The notes under the pieces were generated by a model. The model searched no databases and was not told the origin of the DNA. It saw only the letters and a list, made by a program, of their open reading frames with translations. The position numbers and the translations under genes are program-made. A stretch of DNA of 63,952 bases, counting the filler, from Gonapodya sp. JEL0774 (taxonomy: Eukaryota): assembly GCA_027604505.1 (NCBI GenBank). It is 4 parts of 4 records of this genome, joined end to end, with 100 filler letters (N's around TTAATTAATTAA, not from the genome) between each part and the next. Parts side by side here need not be neighbours in the genome. Positions count along the whole stretch, not along the records: positions 16,124 to 32,126 come from JADIIX010000290.1; 3 more parts are not named here. The stretch is one strand, 5' to 3'. Below are positions 21,273 through 32,645 of the stretch, piece by piece (position 1 is the stretch's first letter; each line of letters starts with the position of its first letter).

Positions 21273-21277
21273 GATTC

Positions 21278-21567
21278 TGTTATCAGTTTTCTGCTGTGAC
21301 AGCTTGTCTGGGCGCGGTCGGGCAGAGGTTCCCCCGTAGCGTAGTACTTATCTTGTAGAGTCACTGAATACACTTAGTTTCTCAGAGCTTATATAGTCTA
21401 ACCCTCGGTCTATTTTGTAATGTCCCCGAAGTACGTAAAGAGAAAATACTCCCTGTAAGTCCTAAAGTCCATCCGGTGTTTTGGACTTGCCCGAATGCTG
21501 TTTGTTTGTGGCGAAGGTGCTGGTGCACAATCCAAGCTTCAGTCGCACCAAGCTGCGACTTCTAACA
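21278..21567 (-). repeat. 3' LTR of the Copia element
   Basis: TGTTATCAG...CTTCTAACA, about 95% identical by eye to 25984-26274. Confidence 0.95.
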
Positions 21568-21599
21568 CTCCCCCAGCAGCCTACGACTGGTTTACAAGC

Positions 21600-24500
21600 T
21601 AAGTCTGAAGACACCTAGTCCCGCTCTGTGCTTCTCTAATAGTGGTCTAGCTAGAGGCTTAGTTAAGATGTCCGCAACATTGTCGACGCCGGGGATATGC
21701 TTCACTTCGACCCGTCCTCCTTGGACTTCTTCCCTAATCTACATCTCCCTCACATCAATGTGCTTTGTTCTCCCGTGAGAAATATTGAGGCTACTTGCTA
21801 TTTTGATTCCAGTTTCACTGTTGGAGAAAATTCGAATGGGATCACTGTTTGTGGTCAAATCCCTCATGAGGTTTCTCAGGTACGCGGCCTGACGGGCAGT
21901 CTCCGTCATGGCGTACAACTCTGCCTTAGTTGTCAATAGTGCCGCTAACTTCTGGCGCTTGCTCGCAAACGAAATACCCGTGCTTGCTTACTTAAATACG
22001 TAGCCAGAGGGTTACCTTCTAGTTGGGTCATTCTCCGCCCAATGCGCATCGGAGTATCCAACAATCTCCGCTACCTGCTCTGCAGTGAACATTAAACCGT
22101 AATCTAAAGTACCTCTAAGATAACAGAATATTTTCTTCACTCCCTCCCAGTGCCAAATGCTGAACTTGTCTTGGTATCTGGCATAGTAGCTGACTGCAAA
22201 GAGAATGTCAGGTCAAGTTCCCTTCGCCAGCCACATCGAACTACCAATTGCCTCGCGAAATCAAATGCCTTTGAGTTGGTCTAGATCATCTCCAGGCTTT
22301 CCGCTGTGATCTTTGTGGAGATTCTTTGCCTCCAACATTGGGGTCCTCGAGACCCTTACTCCTCCCAACCCGAAGTCTTCTATCATGTTACTAGCAAACT
22401 TCTCCTGATGAATAAAAATCTTCTTCTTGTCCAGCTTGAACTGCCAGCTGAGAAACGTTTCCGGCAGACCGATTTCCTTCATGTCAAACCGTTCTGCCAA
22501 TAACTTCTTCGCTTTCCCATTCCCTCCATTCCCCGCTTCTCTGCCATCAACATATTGTCTACATGAAAGAGTAAAGCATGAGTAGAGTCCAAACTAATAA
22601 ATAAACACAGATCTTTTTCCGCCGTCTTGTACCTGTTTTTCACCAAGAACTCCCAGAGAGTTTTGTTACAAAGAAGGGGGCTCCGCTGAAGTCCATATAG
22701 CAGCTTCTTCACCCTCACCTTCTCACCATCCTTCAAACCAAACCTATCTAAAATGTGCTTGGAATTTCAAGCAGGAGTTGAATGTTTACTCATTCATCGG
22801 GGCTAATTCTTTCGACTGTAAAAACACCGTGTCGAAGTCAACTTGTTTCATAACCCAACCGTTCTCCACTGAGAGTGTAATCATCATGCGCAGAGATTTG
22901 GTGTGAGCTACTGGGGAATAACTGTCAATTCCATTAGTGTTTGTTTCCTGGTAACCTCTTGCGACAAGTCTGGCCTTGTACTTCACTCCGCCCTGCGGCA
23001 CAGGTTTCTCTGTTAACACAAAACGAAGTTCCACCACCTTGTCGTCAACTTCCAAATCTTTCAACCTCTTGAACACTCGATATTTTTCCATCTTCACCAT
23101 CTCAGTTTCCACCGCGCCGAAATACTCTTCTGCAATGTTTTCTCTCACAACATTGATGCTCTCACCGGAAAAGTCCAAACAATTCACAGAGTCCGAGGTA
23201 TCTCCATAAAATTTCTGCTGAGCAGCGCGCCGAGGAATCTTGGTTCACGGAGGAAGAGTTGACCAGTTCCTGACATTGGTGGGTGCTCCAGTGCCTGAGT
23301 TGAAGGCTGACTAGGTTTCATCGGTGTCCCGACTTCCTACCCACCAACCAATACATCTCCCCCAGATAACCGCGCCGACCCGTCATCAACAACAACATGC
23401 TCCTTACCCTTCCATATACCGCCTCGAGGTTGAGGAAGGCTCCCCTCGTCGTCCATCAGGTCAGGCATAGTCGGGTCAGGTGTATCGTCGACAACCCCTT
23501 GAAGTCGATCCAAGAGAGAGACAGGAGAGAGCTGAAAGAAAGTTTTTTGAATGTGAGTTGCTTCATCGAAGACAGTGTCCCGAGTGCTTCCAGAGAATAA
23601 CTTTCCCGTCTCTCGTTCCAACTGTCGATAACCCTTCATCCCCTCATTCTCCGCGTACCCCACCATCACCAACTTCCGCGACTTAGAGTCCATCTTCCAA
23701 CGCTTGTTATCATGGATTTCAAGGTAAGCGCCGCAACCGAAAATGCGAAAGTGGCTCACATCCGGTTTCCTCCCCGTGAACACTTCCACAGGAGTCTTCC
23801 CAAGCTTCCCCACGAAAGTCCGGTTCCTCACATAAACAAAAGAGTCCATCGCCATCACCCAATACTTCTTAGGAAGACCGGATGACACGAGCAAGGTACA
23901 ACCACCCTCACCCACTGTCCTGTTGTGTCGCTCTGCGACCCCATTCTGTTCTGACGTGTCAGTCACCGTCTTGTAAACGTGCATGCCTTCCTCCTCCAAG
24001 CGACCTGCGAATGTCTTCCACATGAACTCGCCTCCCTTGTCCACCTGAACCACTCGGACCGTCTCTCCCGTGTACCTCTCAGCCCAAGTCCTCCAAACGT
24101 CAAACGCAATAGGAGCCTTCGCTTTTGAGGTAAGTGGCAAAGTCCATTCCATGTTTGAGTAGTCGTCCACTATCATTATCCAAAACAGTGCGTTCTCAAC
24201 CAACATAGTACTTGCCACTCCCGGATCCGTATGCACGAGACCGAGAACCCAAGTGGGGCGAGGATCATCAGACGCGTTCCAGTTAGAAGACCGGTAAGTC
24301 TGCTTTCCTTCCATGCATGGTTGGCAATCAACCGCAATGTCAGCTGGAGTCTTGACATTGACCCCACTAACGTGTCCACTACCAATTGTCTTCCAGACTC
24401 TTTCTGGCGACTGGTGCCCGAAGTGCCCATGCCAGAGCAGGGCAGGATCAACAGACAATACTGTATGAGACATGCTGATGAAAGCAGAATGTGGAGAATT

Positions 24501-24870
24501 GCTGAGGTGAGTAGGATATCCTCAGAGTGAATAGAGTTTGGTATCTGAGTTTTGCCGTCCTTCTTGATCGACAGGTCGTGGCCTTTTCCCACAAGCTCAT
24601 GGCCCTTGTCCGCAAAAACGGCATGCAACACAATCTTGGTGTGGGACTCGGGGACAAAAAAGGATTCGGTGAGTTGAATTGTCCCCATTGGCTTCCCAGC
24701 CTTATCCACCGCAGTCACACTTATCGTTCCAACACCCATCACAGATAGGGTCCCTCCCCCTGGAATCCTGACCTATGACCCCTTGACCGCCCGAATGTCA
24801 GTAAAGTCCGCCCAATCCCAGGACAAGCTCCAAGTGGCACCGGAGTCCCAGATCAGCTCAGTCAGGGGTC
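21600..24870 (-). pseudogene. Copia pol (protease, GAG-pre-integrase, rve integrase, RT, RNase H), disrupted
   Basis: Protease ELIWDSGATW (~24830-24860); LWHGHFGH...CQPC; integrase VQVDKGGEF and EQNGVAERHNRT; RT KYKARLVARGY, QVDFDTVF, LLYGLQ, FHVDNML; RNaseH TTKAELYA and RTKHIDVR. Confidence 0.92.
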
Positions 24871-24899
24871 GTTTCAGGTGAGTGCTGGTGTGACTGTGC

Positions 24900-25943
24900 T
24901 CAGATGAGTGTGAACACGTGATTGTCCATTACATTCACGAAATGAACGCTCTTGCCCTTCCCGCCACTGCTGCCCCGTCCACCCTCTCCACCGCCACCTC
25001 CACTGCCACCACCTCTCTTCGACCAGTCGCCACCTTGCCCAGTGTCCTTCTTGCTAGAACAATCGCACGCCATGTGGCTGCACTGCGCACACTTGTTGCA
25101 GTTGCCGGGAAATGGTTTGGAGTTGGAGCCTGACGCACTGGACCGAGGTGAGTTGTGCATACTCGAGAATGCCTTACTGCCGATCTCGTCCGCCTTGCCA
25201 CCTTCTGCCGCTAACTGATGTTCCCTCCCGACGAGCATCATCTGTAGATCCTCGACTGTCAACTTGCCGTCCTCCAGCCTGAACTCGGCCAATCCGACTT
25301 GGAGTCCGTACTCCGCAGGCAAACCAGCACTGACACACTTCAACACCTCGCTCATGTTGTACTCACGCCCTTGCACATTGCAGAGCTGGCGGATCAGACT
25401 ACCTTTCTCGGAAAGGTACGTAGTGATCGTCTCATCGGGCGGGAGTTCTCGTTTGGTGAGTTGCCGATGTACAGAGATGGTGTGAGATGCAATGTTGGGC
25501 CTAACTGTGTCAAGGATCGCCTTGCAGATGAGGTGGGAAGTATAATTGACAGGATCAGAAGGTAAGTGCTCTTGTATAGCAGCCAAAAGGGATTCATCAA
25601 TTGCGGCCATTAACACTACTTGCCCAATTCGGTCCTTCACCAGCCGCGCATCCAACTCACTAACTCTTGCCAGTGGTGTGGCATGCGTGGTGGTGACAGG
25701 AGCGGCAAGGGTTGCTGGAGTGGCAGAGAGGGACAGCATTGTGGATGCGGATGCGGTGGTAGTAGGTGCATCGGTGAGTGACCCGGGAACAGCTGCTGGG
25801 GGCTTGGGCACAGTCCCTTGAATGTACTCATGTACGCCTTGCTGCAGTGCAAAGATGCTAACAACTGTTTTCCAGCTGTGGAGATCTCCACCGATCTTGA
25901 GCTGTTGGTTGGCGGCGAATTTGATGGGGTTCCCGCCGAGCAT
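24900..25943 (-). CDS. Copia Gag (UBN2-like region plus CCHC zinc knuckle)
   Basis: 347-aa ORF starting ~40 nt inside the 5' LTR; ETITTYL...GLPAEY; knuckle CNKCAQCSHMACDC. Confidence 0.85.
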   Translation of the reverse strand: MLGGNPIKFAANQQLKIGGDLHSWKTVVSIFALQQGVHEYIQGTVPKPPAAVPGSLTDAPTTTASASTMLSLSATPATLAAPVTTTHATPLARVSELDARLVKDRIGQVVLMAAIDESLLAAIQEHLPSDPVNYTSHLICKAILDTVRPNIASHTISVHRQLTKRELPPDETITTYLSEKGSLIRQLCNVQGREYNMSEVLKCVSAGLPAEYGLQVGLAEFRLEDGKLTVEDLQMMLVGREHQLAAEGGKADEIGSKAFSSMHNSPRSSASGSNSKPFPGNCNKCAQCSHMACDCSSKKDTGQGGDWSKRGGGSGGGGGEGGRGSSGGKGKSVHFVNVMDNHVFTLI

Positions 25944-25983
25944 TGTAGGTGAGTTTAGAGTGCTACAGTTCGCACTGTAAATG

Positions 25984-26274
25984 TGTTATCAGTTTTCTCC
26001 TGTGACAGCTCGTCTGGGCGCGGTCGGGCAGAGGTTCCCCCGTAGCGTAGTACTTATCTTGAGGAGGTCACTGAATACACGTAGTTTCTCAGAGCTTATA
26101 TAGTCTAACCCTCAGTGTATTTCGTAATGTCCCCGAAGTACGTAAAGAGAAAATACTCCCCGTAAGTCCTAAAGTCCATCGGGTGTTTTGGACTTGCCCA
26201 AATGCTGTTTGTTTGTGGCGAATGTGCCGGTGCACAATCCAAGCTTCAGTCGCACCAAGCTGCGACTTCTAACA
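25984..26274 (-). repeat. 5' LTR of the Copia element (contains TATATAAG on the - strand)
   Basis: Direct repeat of 21278-21567, followed by TSD GATTC. Confidence 0.95.
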
Positions 26275-26766
26275 GATTCAACTGTGAACTACCAAATGGA
26301 GAGGTTGGAAAATAAAACTGTAAGGTAAACTGTGCCAGCTCTGCACTATGTCCGTCTTAAGAGATATACTGAACAGGCACAAACCAACAAGGAGAAATCA
26401 GATGTTGGTATCAACAAAACAGCCCATTTTCCCATGTAGTGTGTTGTGTATGAGAAAAGACAAGTTTGGAGTTCCAACAGTTTATGAGCCCACCTGCTCA
26501 TTAGAGTGTGAACTGCTGATCTCTCCAACGCAGGCGCCATTTTCCACTTTGTTGATTGCTTGTTAGTAGTGTAATGCACACCCTCCAAAAATGTGTGTGT
26601 CAACATTTTTGCAAACTGCTGTGGTCTGTAAAACATACCCCGCCCCTGAGTATGTTTATAATTAATGAGAGGTTGGGGCCGATGTGGGAAACCCCAGGGG
26701 TTCAGACTAAAACATGTCTATATATCCCACAGATGTGGTGGGATCATCAAAAAGCTGAAAAAGTAC

Positions 26767-26830
26767 TGCACAGAGACTCGAACTTCCTCCTCCGAAGAGA
26801 GCGCAACTGGAGTGCGCTGCCTTAGACCTG
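26767..26830 (-). pseudogene. Degenerate partial copy of the neighbouring tRNA-Leu gene
   Basis: CCTCCGAAGAGAGCGCAACTGGAGTGCGCTGCCTTA closely matches 26987-27022. The acceptor stem and D-arm are broken, and the anticodon position reads CCA. Confidence 0.7.
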
Positions 26831-26960
26831 ATCCAAATCATCACCCCATTAGAACCACACGTTGCATTGTTGAAAATGAGAATCACAGGGACCTTTGGCC
26901 CAATCTCGGCTCGAGATAGGATTGCCATAGCGTGAGTTGAGGTAAAGAATAAAAAACGTT

Positions 26961-27041
26961 TGCACAGTGTGAGATTTGAACTCACGCCTCCGAAGAGAGC
27001 GCAACTTGAGTGCGCCGCCTTAACCGCTCGGCCAACTGTGC
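26961..27041 (-). tRNA. tRNA-Leu (anticodon CAA), intronless, long variable arm
   Basis: GCACAGT-TGGCCGAGCGGTTAAGGC-GGCGCA-CTCAAGT-TGCGC-TCTCTTCGGAGGC-GTGAGTTCAAATCTCAC-ACTGTGCA. Paired acceptor stem, A and B boxes, and a T6 Pol III terminator at 26951-26956. Confidence 0.93.
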
Positions 27042-27109
27042 AGTTCAGTTAAATTGGGGTGAAAATTTATTTCAAGATTATTTTAGCAGAAAAAGTTTGA
27101 AGTACCTGG

Positions 27110-29141
27110 TTGCCAACCCCGATGGAAGCCTACCATCTCGACTCCACCGACACACTCGAGGTGTCTCGACACATCGAGACTCTCCTCGCCGATCACGCTC
27201 TCGAGGACGTGACGGATCTTTACGATCCGAAACAACCACGACCAGGGGTCTTCTACGCTCGACTTTTTGTCGTGTATCAGAAGAACAAGAGTCGGCTGAT
27301 CACCGACTACACCCCAGTGAATCCGTACCTCCATGTGCCCAAGTTCAAAATGGACACCGTACGCATTCTAAGAGAGATTGTCTCCTCCCGAACCTTTCAG
27401 TTCGGAGCGTCGATCGACATCAAGAACGCCTTTCCCCACATCGCGACCCGCGAGCAGGACCGCGAGGCCCTTCTCATTCTAGGGCCCGGGAACCGCGTTT
27501 ACCGCCCCCTCGCAGCGACGTTTGGGCTCGCGCCGATTCCGCTGCTTTGGACAAAGGTATTTATCTTGTTGTAGTGGTCCTCTCACCCAAGGATTCACCC
27601 TCCGCTCCCTTTCTGGTGTCCCCAGCTCATGAGGGTTGTACTCAGCATCCTCCGGTCGAACGGGATCCAGTCGTCGTTTTACATCGACGACGGGATCAAC
27701 TTTGGAGAGACCCATCTGCGCACAGCACTAGACCAGATCTTCTCCTGTCTTCTGCTTTTGTATCTGGGGTTTACAATCAGTTACCCCAAGATCATTCTCG
27801 CGGTGCACCGCCCCATTCACTTGGGTCTCATTTGGGATCTCAAGAAGGGCACTCTCTCCCTCACTCCCGCTCGACTTCGCTCTCTACGCAGCAGGGTCAA
27901 GCAGGCCATCAGGAAGGACTCCATCCCGCTTCGGCAGGCGGCGTCCATCCTGGGCACACTGCAGTCCGCTCACGACGCCCTGTCATACGCGCAGCTCCAA
28001 GCTCTGCCCCTGCTTCAGGCTTACAACCGTATCCTGTCGCAGCGACACAACTCTTTCCAGGGCTCTTGGAACAGGCTGTTGGTCATATCCCCAGCCATTC
28101 GCCACTCCCTGCAGGAGCTCTTACAACACCTGCATCAGTGGAACGGCGTCAGCTTCCTCCCGCCCAAGGTAGACTTGGTGATCACATCCGACGCCTCGGA
28201 AACGGGTTCTGGAGCGAACCTTCGCGCAGCGCCAGCGCTCCCCGTCGTTTCAACGACCACGTCAAAGGGAGACCAGCTAATTCGAACTTCAGCTCGCTGG
28301 ACAGCCGATCTCCTTATTCGGCACCTTCACACTCTGTTCACTCCAGCAGTCATTCGGGGCTGGTTTGCCAACCCATCCATACCGCTGACAGAGTTCATCC
28401 ACATCCAAGTCCTGGAGGCTATCTCCTCCTTCCTTGGACTGAAGGCTTTCGCGCGCGAGACTCCCCTGCAGGGGAAGACGATCCTTCTGCTCACCGACAA
28501 CACAGCTTCAGCCTACACCATGGCCAAGCAAGGTCGGTCGCGCAGCCCAGCACTGTCCCTGGTGGTCAGTCAGATGCTGGATTGGGTGCGCTCCCACGGG
28601 GCGACTTTGTTTGTGGAGCACATCCCTGGATCTCTGAACACGTTGGCGGTAAGTGTAGCCCTGCACGCAGTTGCTACCCGTGCTACCTTCCGTTCCCCCT
28701 GCGCCTGGACTGATTTTGTCATCTCTAGGATCACGACTCCTGTCTCCAGAGAGACATCCACGGCTGGAAACTCCACCTGTGTGTGTTTCAGTCTCTCAAC
28801 AGACTGTGGGGTCTGCACTCTGTCGACCTCTTCACCTCAGCCCTCAATCGCCAGATCCCAACATTCTGTAGTTGGGGTCCGGATCCAGAAGGGCTTGCTC
28901 CGAACGCCTTCTCGATCCATTGGGGGCACCCGTCCAACCTCTTCATCAATCCCCCATGGGTGCTCATCCCTTGGATAGTGAAGAAGCTCATCTTGGATGG
29001 GGGTACAGCAACTCTCGTCGATCCGTGGTGGCCCCTACTCCTCACGCTTGCGATTGACTCGCCCCGTCTGATCCCAGAGATTCCCCAGGATCTGACTACA
29101 GCCAGCCGCCCCCAGCAAAAATGCTCGCATGGAGGCTATGC
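27110..29141 (+). CDS. DIRS pol: reverse transcriptase, RNase H and DNA N6-adenine methyltransferase; predicted introns 27557-27625 and 28649-28728; probable frameshift near 29110
   Basis: RT: FYARLFVVYQKNKSRLITDY, SIDIKNAFPHI, ATFGLAP, FYIDDG. RNaseH: ITSDASETG, HIQVLEA, LLTDNTAS, EHIPGSLNTLAD. MTase: WGLHSVDLFTSALN...NAFSIHW...FINPPW. Confidence 0.88.
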
Positions 29142-30632
29142 GTCAACGATGGGAAGCAGCAGGCGTACCTCCGCTCGTTGCCCAGTCACTCGCAACACAT
29201 GGAGCGAGAAAGTCAGAGGCAACAACTGCAGGTCGCAGAACAGAACGGTCTCGATCCCTATCAGGAACCTGTCCCTAGTTGGTTTGTCTACAATGCCTAC
29301 CGCTTAACAAAGGCAGGTTCACGGAAGAAAGCAGACGGCTGGAGCCGCTCAACGCAGCAAAAGTACCTCTCCGCCCTCATGACCCAAAGTCATCCGCCAC
29401 ATTGGTCAATCACCCACTGCTGAAGGAGTTACAGTGCGTGACCGCCAATGTTGTACCCGGTCGGAATGCGTTCGACATGGAGCACACGTTTGATCCAATC
29501 TACATATTATCCTACATCGATCGTTTCAACGTAGATCCTTCTTCGCCTATTCTGAGCAACGACGAAGTGAATCCCTTCCAGCTCCAGCTTCGACTGATCG
29601 TCCTCCTCGTCCTTCTAGACGCCCGACGACCAGCCGACCTTACGCATATCCTTTCCAACCGGTGCAGTGTTCGTGCCGACAAGGTTTCACTTTTCTTCAC
29701 TGAGCTGAAGAAGCAGGAGAAAGGCTCACATGTGATCACCTACGCGGTCGATCCCACTCTGCCCCCACATCGCAATCTCTGTGATATCCTCACAGCCCAC
29801 CTCCGAAACCTGTCACAAGTTGAGGACTCTGTCACAGATCCCTCGGTGCTCATACGCTGCAAGTCGTCGGATGGGACTGGCTCTCTGATCGCCCGGGCTG
29901 CCACACCCAACACCATGCTCTCCTGGATCCAGAAACTGGTCCTCACACCCGCCGGATTCCCTGAATTCAACGGGTATGCATTGGTGAAGGCCGCTGCTAC
30001 TACGGTACCCACTCGCAGCGGCCCAGGTCAAGAGCCATCGGTTACCCGATGGAAGTCAAAGTTTGTCGCCTTCCGCCACTACGTTAAGAGTGGCGCGCGC
30101 GTCTGGCCTCCAGTCCACTTGCGGGAGGACAAAGATGAACTTCGAGGTAAGTTCAGTGTCAGAGTTATTCCAGCTCGCATGACCTTTGTTCTTTGGGAGG
30201 TCGCATGACCCCCTTCTCTTCGTCCTAATCAAAGGACGAAGTTTCGCTGAGCGAAAGCGAAGCGGGGCTTCATTCTTTTGATTTTAAGAAGTGAAGGGGG
30301 TCATGCGAGCTGTCCCACCCGCCCAACCACTCTCTCTGACACCGCTTGTTCCCTTTTCAGATCTTCTGAACGGCGGTAAGACGATAGCAAGCGCCAGGGT
30401 CTTTGTGCGCTCTAAGCCCACGATCAATCCCACCCTTGGCGCTGGTACCGTCTCGGCTTCTTCAAGCCGGGCGCATCGTCTCTCCAGAGTTGCTGAGAGC
30501 AACAGCGACGAGGATCTAAGTGATTCAAGTTTGTGAGTACTCACACTCCCCTTGTTTTGCTACATAACCTGACCTTATGGCTTCTCGGTCGGCAGTTATG
30601 TTGAGATTCCCGTACGGAAGGGTAGACCCTGA
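29121..30632 (+). CDS. DIRS tyrosine recombinase (frameshift near 29385; predicted introns 30147-30360 and 30533-30595)
   Basis: N-terminal STQQKYLSAL...NHPLLKEL; catalytic-Arg box LLVLLDARRPADL; C-terminal TRWKSKFVAFRHY. The spliced C-terminal tail is inferred. Confidence 0.75.
30171..30312 (+). repeat. DIRS internal complementary region (ICR) with nested hairpins
   Basis: 30201-30216 pairs with 30293-30308. Hairpins are CTTCGTCCT/AGGACGAAG (30218-30241) and TTTCGCT/AGCGAAA (30242-30256). 30258-30312 is the reverse complement of 31084-31136 with a few mismatches. Confidence 0.8.
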
Positions 30633-31521
30633 CTATGTTAGTTAGTGTCTCGCTGTATCTACCCGTTTGGAATATACCTAGCTCTGTGCACTCTATCTGT
30701 GATTCTGTGCACACCCCTTACTCAGGTACTCTGCCAGAGTTTTCTCATTCATTTCTAGGTTTGGGTAGGCTCTCCCGCCACCAGGCGGTGACATCAACTC
30801 GGCAAGTCATACCGTCTTGATGCACTTGGTCGTTGTCCCTTGGTCAACTGGTCGCCATTTTGGCAACGCCTCTCTTTCCAAGCCTGCGGCTTGTGTCTCA
30901 GGGGCCCAGTCGGGATAAATGACCGAGTGGGGAGGTCTCTATTGTTTTTCACTATGTGCACCGGGCCGTGCACACAACCGCGATTTTGCCACACACTTTG
31001 TGTGTCGCAAAATACAAACCATCAACTCACCCCTCTTTGGGAGTTTTCCCTGACCCGAGTGAGGCCCGGCAACCTTTGCCGAGCAGCTCACATGACCCCT
31101 TCACTTTTTAAAATCAAAGAATGAAGCCCCACTTCGTCCATTCTCGTCCCGGAATTGCTTCATGTTCTTGAAGTACTCCATCATGACCAACCGCTGCTCT
31201 TCTGCTGCTTTGGTGAGCTTTTGCTGATATGAAGGTAAGCCGTGCTGACCAATGAGACCTTAATCCAAGTCCAAGTAGTTCCTTTCAAATATCCAGGGTA
31301 GGGATTTGATCGACTGGAGGTGGTCCCAATTGCCCCCTGTCTGGACAATCTTCGTTGGATACACTGGCGAGGCAATTGTAGGATTGATGTGGTGTTTCTA
31401 CCTAAGATGTGCGAGTGTGTCACGGTTGGTACTTATAAAATCAGTTCGACGAGTAAAATAGCCATCAGTACTGCACCAAAGTTGATGTGATGCATGGGTT
31501 CCACACCAATGATGATGGGAC

Positions 31522-31793
31522 TCTTAGAAGTCGCAGCTTGGATTGAGGACCAGCAGATTTGCCGCAAACAACGCCATTGGTGCAGGACCAAAACATCTGA
31601 TGGACTTTAGGACTAATGGGGAATATTTTCTCTTTATGTACTTTGAGGACATTAAGAAATGGGCGAAGGTTAGACTCTATAAGCTCTGAGATACAAAGCG
31701 CATAGAGTGACTCTACAAGATAAATACTACACTAAGGGGGAACCACTGCCCGACCATGCCCAGACAACATGTCATTGCAGGAAACTGATTGCA
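31522..31793 (+). repeat. Diverged solo LTR related to the Copia family at 21278-26274, in opposite orientation
   Basis: Blocks TTAGAAGTCGCAGCTTGG, GATGGACTTTAGGACT, GGTTAGACT.TATAAGCTCTGAGA and GGGGGAACC.CTGCCCGACC match the reverse complement of the LTR. Flanks GGGAC/GAGAC resemble a 5-bp TSD. Confidence 0.85.
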
Positions 31794-32645
31794 GAGACTT
31801 AGTGGTTCCACGCTGACAATTGTGTGGGGTGCAGTACCCCTCCCCCCTCCCCACACCAATATACCAACTTACTTGAGTGTGACATCTCCGGGTTCATCAC
31901 AAGTTATGTTGAAATGATGAAACCTACTGAGATGAGAAAGCTAAAGCACGTGGCTTTCAATCCAGCTCTGCAATTCTGGTACATTGTCCACGTTGAACAA
32001 TGTCGCCCACTCTGGACTCTGAACTGTGGAGGAACTCCATTGTCAGGGGCTGACAATCACCGGATATATGGACATTATATTAAGTTGAGTTTTCCATCGG
32101 ATTCCAGAACATTTGTCTGGTAGAACNNNNNNNNNNNNNNNNNNNNNNNNNNNNNNNNNNNNNNNNNNNNTTAATTAATTAANNNNNNNNNNNNNNNNNN
32201 NNNNNNNNNNNNNNNNNNNNNNNNNNCATTTGACACTCGGCTCTGGAATCGTTTCCCATGCCATGTAGATTCCCGTTAAGGCTCCGCTCCCGCAGGTGAT
32301 GTGCAACGCGATTCTTTCAATCGTGAACTCAAAATACAACTACCGGGACGAGAACTTCGCCAACGATCAGAGTACACTCTACTCATGGGACTGCGTCTCG
32401 GGATAGTAAGGTTTGAAGATACTGTATATTCCACGCTACCGCAAATGTTCCAACGTGACGTGGACGACAAATACATTCCTCTGTAGGACCAATCAACTAG
32501 ACTTCAGTTTCGCATAGGCATAGAGTCCACATACGGTAGCTTTGCGACTATAATGTCCGTACAGAATGCCGGACGTTTCTCAACCAAAGAGTACCTGGTC
32601 GACCTCGAGAGTCCCTCACCAAGTCACGAGTCCGACTGACAGTCA

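Follow-up and report, generated by a model that had tools for sequence, protein, structure and literature searches.

The stretch of DNA from Gonapodya sp. JEL0774 that was analysed here (the window, 63,952 nucleotides with its filler letters) holds, on its plus strand between about 27120 and 31136, a remnant that can be classed as a DIRS1-like retrotransposon, 5′-truncated and decayed. Public proteins that carry the label Gonapodya sp. JEL0774 agree with the window to 99.6-100%, in keeping with a host of this kind. The domains follow each other on this strand in the order RT, RNase H, a methyltransferase-like region and an overlapping recombinase (Table 1). The RT and RNase H are of the DIRS type, with pairwise E-values of 1e-14 and 6e-17 against the animal pol P0008, and the start of the first RT exon is the same in a second copy, P0007. 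The methyltransferase-like region behind the RNase H matched the Pfam family Dam with an E-value of 0.013, under the curated cut-off. Pfam gave no match for the window's own recombinase stretch, and the predicted model of its relative P0011, which is 46% identical, matched Cre (E 6e-5, probability 1.00). The copy in the window must be regarded as dead: the gag ORF and the left terminus are absent with its 5′ part, the recombinase, which overlaps the methyltransferase, carries two frame changes within its first third, and the methyltransferase has deletions compared with intact relatives.

The layout of RT, RNase H and methyltransferase with an overlapping recombinase is that of DIRS-1 from Dictyostelium, of the fungal RoDIRS1 and of AmDIRS1/2, as given in the available parts of PMC3266345, PMC7192593 and PMC3783388. 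An identity as a Ngaro or PAT-like element was considered and ruled out, since the split direct repeats of such elements are missing between 22000 and 34000 and the internal-to-terminal match is inverted. YR retrotransposons had not been found in two chytrid genomes (PMC3783388).

Table 1. Features of the DIRS1-like element, in positions of the window
Feature	Position	Strand	Remarks
RT exon 1	27122..27556	+	32% identity to residues 543-671 of the intronless animal DIRS pol P0008
Intron 1 (within RT), phase 0, 69 nt	27557..27625	+	GT..AG ends
RT/RNase H exon 2	27626..28648	+	27% identity to P0008 residues 672-964
Intron 2 (separating RNase H from methyltransferase), phase 0, 80 nt	28649..28728	+	
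Methyltransferase-like exon of DIRS type, partly deleted in comparison with P0021	28729..29307	+	36% identity to P0008, 44% to P0021
Tyrosine recombinase coding region up to donor	29129..30146	+	46% identity to intact relative P0011
Predicted intron 3, 214 nt, phase 1, holding the ICR	30147..30360	+	donor GTAAGT at 30147
Hairpin block, 142 nt	30171..30312	+	-96.7 kcal/mol, z = -8.69, 0/200 shuffles as stable
Putative left ICR	30194..30256	+	core in common with right ICR and right terminus
Right ICR	30254..30312	+	complementary to right terminus
Branch-like CTGAC, pyrimidine tract and acceptor AG	30336..30360	+	no other AG between 30309 and 30360
Predicted tail exon, low complexity	30361..30532	+	open solely in the reading frame that follows from the phase-1 donor
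Candidate intron 4, 63 nt	30533..30595	+	GTGAGT, CTGAC at 30569, next AG at 30595; sequence signals only
Right terminus of element	31084..31136	+	apparently ~4 nt short of the junction predicted from the ICR

Introns in the Conserved Coding Regions

The exons that flank intron 1 align to the adjacent residues 671 and 672 of P0008, an exact join, and across intron 2 residues 964/965 of P0008 and 492/493 of P0010 are contiguous. The position of intron 2 can also be followed outside this genome, where metagenome relatives at 56-59% identity, seen as unspliced translations, break at the intron-2 codon: two of them stop after 11 residues, and two others carry an in-frame insert of 30 residues ending in Q. 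The codon is the same in relatives whose intron sequence is unrelated. The gene models of the Gonapodya copies P0007 and P0017 leave the RT at the intron-1 donor, and that of P0014 reads through the intron-2 sequence. Taken together, the alignments show that introns 1 and 2 are inserted exactly into conserved protein sequence. From the end of candidate intron 4 to the right terminus (30596-31083, roughly 490 nt) there are further GT..AG pairs, e.g., 30655-30725, without homology support.

The Hairpin behind the Recombinase

In the description of the replication signal of DIRS elements, the ICR, a core of 10 nt or more is common to both ICRs and the termini (PMC3266345, in the part of its text available), and the hairpin block behind the recombinase fits this published anatomy. 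Its right half, at 30258-30312, is complementary to 31084-31136 in 50 of 55 columns (E 3.7e-13). The two halves meet at the hairpin centre in AAA (30254-30256), which would correspond to the circular junction. The core was seen in three of the four expected places, namely the left ICR, the right ICR and the right terminus; since the element lacks its 5′ end here, the window offers no partner for the left half of the hairpin. An ICR behind the recombinase that is complementary to the 3′ end, with a shared core and AAA at its centre, is what the accessible descriptions report for DIRS1-like elements.

No Rfam family scored above its gathering threshold for the hairpin. A loose hairpin pattern returned 19 viral loci, which have no similarity to the element and were taken as chance. 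At the 5′ edge of the hairpin (30171-30184) the ICR core occurs for a third time and forms a small side stem. At 31132-31140 the bases of the right end also match the predicted sequence of the left terminus over 9 nt, either by chance or as a trace of end-to-end recombination.

A Predicted Intron around the ICR

The initial annotation of this locus had proposed that the hairpin lies entirely inside a phase-1 intron of the recombinase gene, with a donor, a branch-like CTGAC and an acceptor, and that its right half pairs with the element's 3′ terminus. Both the complementarity and the containment were confirmed, and the coordinates of the predicted splice signals proved right as well: removal of the 214 nt joins the recombinase to a tail exon of 57 codons that is open in the recombinase frame and has stops in the other two. 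Judged from a single copy, the splice signals exceed chance to no more than a moderate degree: about 4% of 50-nt stretches in the window would contain a GTRAGT, and 11% of shuffled tail exons are open in the recombinase frame. It is the relatives that give the prediction its weight. The public gene model P0002, a spliced model of this locus, has the same 30146/30361 junction, but it also bridges a frameshift with a splice and was therefore rejected as independent support. P0007, the gene model of the second copy, departs from the recombinase at the codon of the intron-3 donor.

Without the 142-nt hairpin, intron 3 measures 72 nt, and the introns of the neighbouring host helicase gene measure 65-81 nt (n = 7, picked by eye). 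If the hairpin folded out, it would leave an intron of host size and hide the internal AG at 30234, and the spliceosome would therefore use the acceptor at 30360. A different role for the donor has to be weighed here. The conserved GTRAGT might serve as a U1 snRNP site that blocks premature 3′-end formation or retains the RNA in the nucleus, the ICR being spliced out rarely or never, or it might be spliced to 30234. Such a role would have a parallel in the U1-dependent inhibition of premature termination of full-length EVD RNA (PMC5580714, text available in part); the AG at 30234 would yield an intron of 88 nt, and conservation was seen for the donor only. Against this, the branch-like site, the pyrimidine tract and the AG that follow the hairpin restore an open frame, and the predicted fold leaves no base of the AG at 30234 free (unpaired probability 0.0); splicing to this AG would still cut out most of the left ICR. 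This second role of the donor seems improbable, and the splicing of intron 3 from 30147 to 30360 is probably real, with an acceptor and a tail exon that are known from this copy alone.

A Probable Donor in Diverged Relatives

Among 1.84 billion representatives, a word search gave six matches and a profile search 13. The relatives used are 34-55% identical to the window copy, and the ten that were aligned with it are 28-83% identical among themselves. These proteins seem to come from gene calls that took no account of splicing, so that their tails would read into the intron. Left out of the donor count were P0002 and P0007 as spliced models (the former of this very locus), P0004, P0005, P0030 and P0032-P0041 as near-duplicates within clusters, P0026 and P0029 as fragments that fall short of the site, and P0031 as a distant protein with no anchor. 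A tree with good support for one of eight branches served solely as evidence that the rows have diverged.

In the alignment, conservation of the recombinase ends at E-L-x, just before the donor codon. The residues that come next are G-K-F in the window copy and S-E-F, S-E-S, S-E-Y, R-E-Y, S-E-Y, S-E-end, S-E-L, S-E-F, S-E-K and C-Q-end in the ten relatives. Compatibility with N/GT RAG T at the donor codon (the slash marks the exon end) was found in 9/11 rows, i.e., the window copy and 8/10 relatives, in the pattern (S/R/G)-(E/K)-(F/Y/S/L/stop); this is a compatibility of peptides and not of bases, and P0023 can be included only on condition that its last residue is followed by a stop. The two rows that do not fit are one base off. 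The next best column of the alignment reaches 4/11, and the background is 26/3312 tripeptides; as the rows are related, the count does not amount to nine independent trials. Conservation of the donor had been set as a check by the initial annotation, and to the extent that unspliced peptides can reveal it, it was found.

The same column could be read as protein conservation, the S-E-hydrophobic residues belonging to the last helix of a recombinase that ends near 30208 and has no intron 3, so that the ICR would lie in an ordinary 3′ untranslated region. That all conserved recombinase residues stand before the donor would agree with this, as would the prediction of a helix through the read-through residues and the levels of only 4% and 11% for the splice signals of the single copy. 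It sits badly with G-K-F in the window copy, R-E-Y in P0006, S-E-S in P0011 and the end of P0023 right after S-E, with read-through tails that vary from 2 to 34 residues and differ in frame within one cluster (P0024 versus P0033), and with the two other well-supported introns of the element; an element without intron 3 is thus quite improbable. The substitutions, S/R/G in the first position, E/K in the second and F/Y/S/L/stop in the third, are better read as tracking the bases of a donor than amino-acid chemistry. A phase-1 GTRAGT donor ahead of the ICR appears to be conserved across a diverged clade.

The sequence behind the donor could be followed in some of the relatives. Between P0003 and P0011, 51/60 residues are identical before the donor, 2/2 at the donor, 0/13 after it and 7/7 at the start of the ICR, which has the form of a fast-changing stretch with a nucleotide element under constraint on either side. 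A degenerate ICR motif derived from these tails was discarded as circular and replaced by the window's own 15-mer at 30194-30208, the first bases of the ICR, with a control. Three tails are too short for this test. Among the eight testable ones, four contain the 15-mer with at most one mismatch, in two reading frames and 48-62 nt after the donor (47 in the window copy), and a fifth fits with two mismatches; in P0006, P0022 and P0027 it is at background level, with four mismatches. None of 205 control windows reached one mismatch, and three reached two. Since 4/8 tails and 0/205 controls fit, the order of donor and then ICR is probably shared at least with the group of P0003, P0011 and P0013 and with the group of P0024. 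Protein alignments and a degenerate recombinase pattern, which has one match in the window, recovered no DNA of the relatives from the metagenome, viral and prokaryote collections.

Splicing and the Recombinase

The conserved tyrosine lies 22 codons ahead of the donor. In the predicted structure of the spliced protein, pLDDT is under 50 from residue 335 on, i.e., in the tail exon, and this tail is accordingly predicted to be disordered. The last helix of the recombinase is predicted with or without splicing and runs through the read-through residues. With the tyrosine before the donor and a tail that is predicted to be disordered, splicing is probably not needed for an active recombinase, and unspliced RNA, to go by these models, may also make a working enzyme.

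A Possible Gate on Retrotransposition

In DIRS-1, deletion of the ICR left cDNA synthesis intact and abolished new insertions, which makes the ICR essential after first-strand synthesis (PMC7192593, in the part available). An RNA spliced at intron 3 would for this reason be a dead end: having lost the ICR, it would still be reverse transcribed but could not finish. Only RNA that retains intron 3 would complete retrotransposition, spliced RNA would act as messenger and unspliced RNA as genome, and selection would work against copies made from fully spliced RNA. A working gate of this kind, with the ICR in the predicted intron and RNA with intron 3 alone able to propagate, is a proposition with about even chances. 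Two claims of the initial annotation come out changed. The DIRS1-like identity, the anatomy of the ICR and a donor that looks conserved support its splicing-gated retrotransposition, but splicing is probably not required for the recombinase, as the tyrosine precedes the donor. Its second claim, that the separation of messenger from genome RNA explains why the element keeps its introns, holds in so far as RNA without the ICR would be a dead end, yet such a gate would force the retention of intron 3 alone.

Introns 1, 2 and 4 would be kept only if the copied RNA were unspliced throughout. We are therefore less sure of the gate as the reason why the clade keeps its introns: introns 1, 2 and 4 would be protected only if splicing were largely all-or-none. 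Intron retention as such does not need an ICR gate, since Penelope-like elements keep introns after retrotransposition without having an ICR, a feature whose significance is called unknown in the available text of PMC8557442. Intron 3 might accordingly be real and the gate a by-product, if Gag or RT captured unspliced RNA in an earlier sorting step, as Penelope-like elements seem to do, and if the ICR were intronic only since it must be non-coding and lie just behind the recombinase. Introns 1 and 2, which are retained though free of the ICR, speak for this, as do the introns of the Penelope-like elements (PMC8557442, accessible part) and the fact that an unspliced marker intron was carried into DIRS-1 cDNA, where the authors read it as competition between splicing and retrotransposition (PMC7192593, sections available). 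What a by-product would leave without a reason is the persistence of the donor right before the ICR in lineages that are 28-50% identical, in front of a tail that looks disordered; on the whole this explanation seems rather unlikely. The wider form of the gate hypothesis, in which an old DIRS1-like clade of early-diverging fungi or of other eukaryotic microbes has made the spliceosome a switch for its replication and passes its introns on through RNA, can be put forward as a tentative and somewhat doubtful extension.

Essential signals in an intron are familiar from retroviruses. In MLV and HIV-1, the packaging signal lies behind the splice donor, so that an essential intronic cis signal limits copying to unspliced RNA; this gate acts at packaging, whereas the one proposed here would act after first-strand synthesis. 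The retroviral arrangement is not universal, as RSV carries the packaging signal in spliced and unspliced RNA alike (PMC5035971, in its available part). The separation of translated from copied RNA by splicing also has a parallel in the Ty1/Copia elements BARE (PMC3735527) and EVD (PMC5580714), both known here from partial texts, in which splicing removes the coding potential of pol and favours Gag; in the DIRS element, by contrast, splicing would take out only a non-coding replication signal and leave the reading frames intact. Penelope-like elements share the retained introns, and differ in their RT clade, in their integration enzyme and in having no ICR, and the available text of PMC8557442 proposes no intronic cis signal.

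Compared with the DIRS1-like elements described so far, the element in the window stands apart in having at least two, and probably four, short introns with the ICR inside a predicted one, about 770 nt from the ICR to the right terminus, and a recombinase without a Pfam match. Papers by Goodwin and Poulter and a review by Poulter and Butler reportedly mention introns for some YR retrotransposons, so the presence of introns in a DIRS element may not in itself be a novelty. The words “intron” and “splic” have no occurrence in the main texts of three DIRS surveys (PMC3266345, PMC3783388 and PMC9210276). No description of an ICR inside an intron was found in the literature searched, in so far as its texts were available, and the accessible portions of PMC13465315, PMC12477816 and PMC3212892 have nothing on this arrangement.

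If the proposed gate is true, an essential non-coding signal in an intron would be a simple selective filter for unspliced templates, and messenger would be split from genome RNA with no reading frame touched. An ICR gate might help to account for the introns that this element has retained. The idea is directly testable, as a retrotransposition assay for DIRS-1 exists in Dictyostelium.

The Recombinase Clade and the Genomic Surroundings

The conserved donor marks a clade of divergent recombinases that looks undescribed. Tyrosine recombinases usually carry an H-x-x-R motif. In this clade (29960-30000 in the window; P0003-P0033), Y-x-L-x-K stands in its place, a placement that follows from the alignment; the fold is Cre-like, and the R, K, W and Y are retained.

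A tRNA-Leu(CAA) gene occupies 26960-27042 on the minus strand, and the DIRS remnant begins some 70-80 nt upstream of it, which possibly reflects a tRNA-proximal insertion or merely the end of a deletion. A tRNA-like fragment of 52 nt, 87% identical, is found at 26773-26824. The remnant is also neighboured by a Copia-type element on the minus strand (21276-26275), the LTRs of which are 95% identical, and an inverted copy of this LTR, about 80% identical, lies on the far side of the remnant at 31521-31796.
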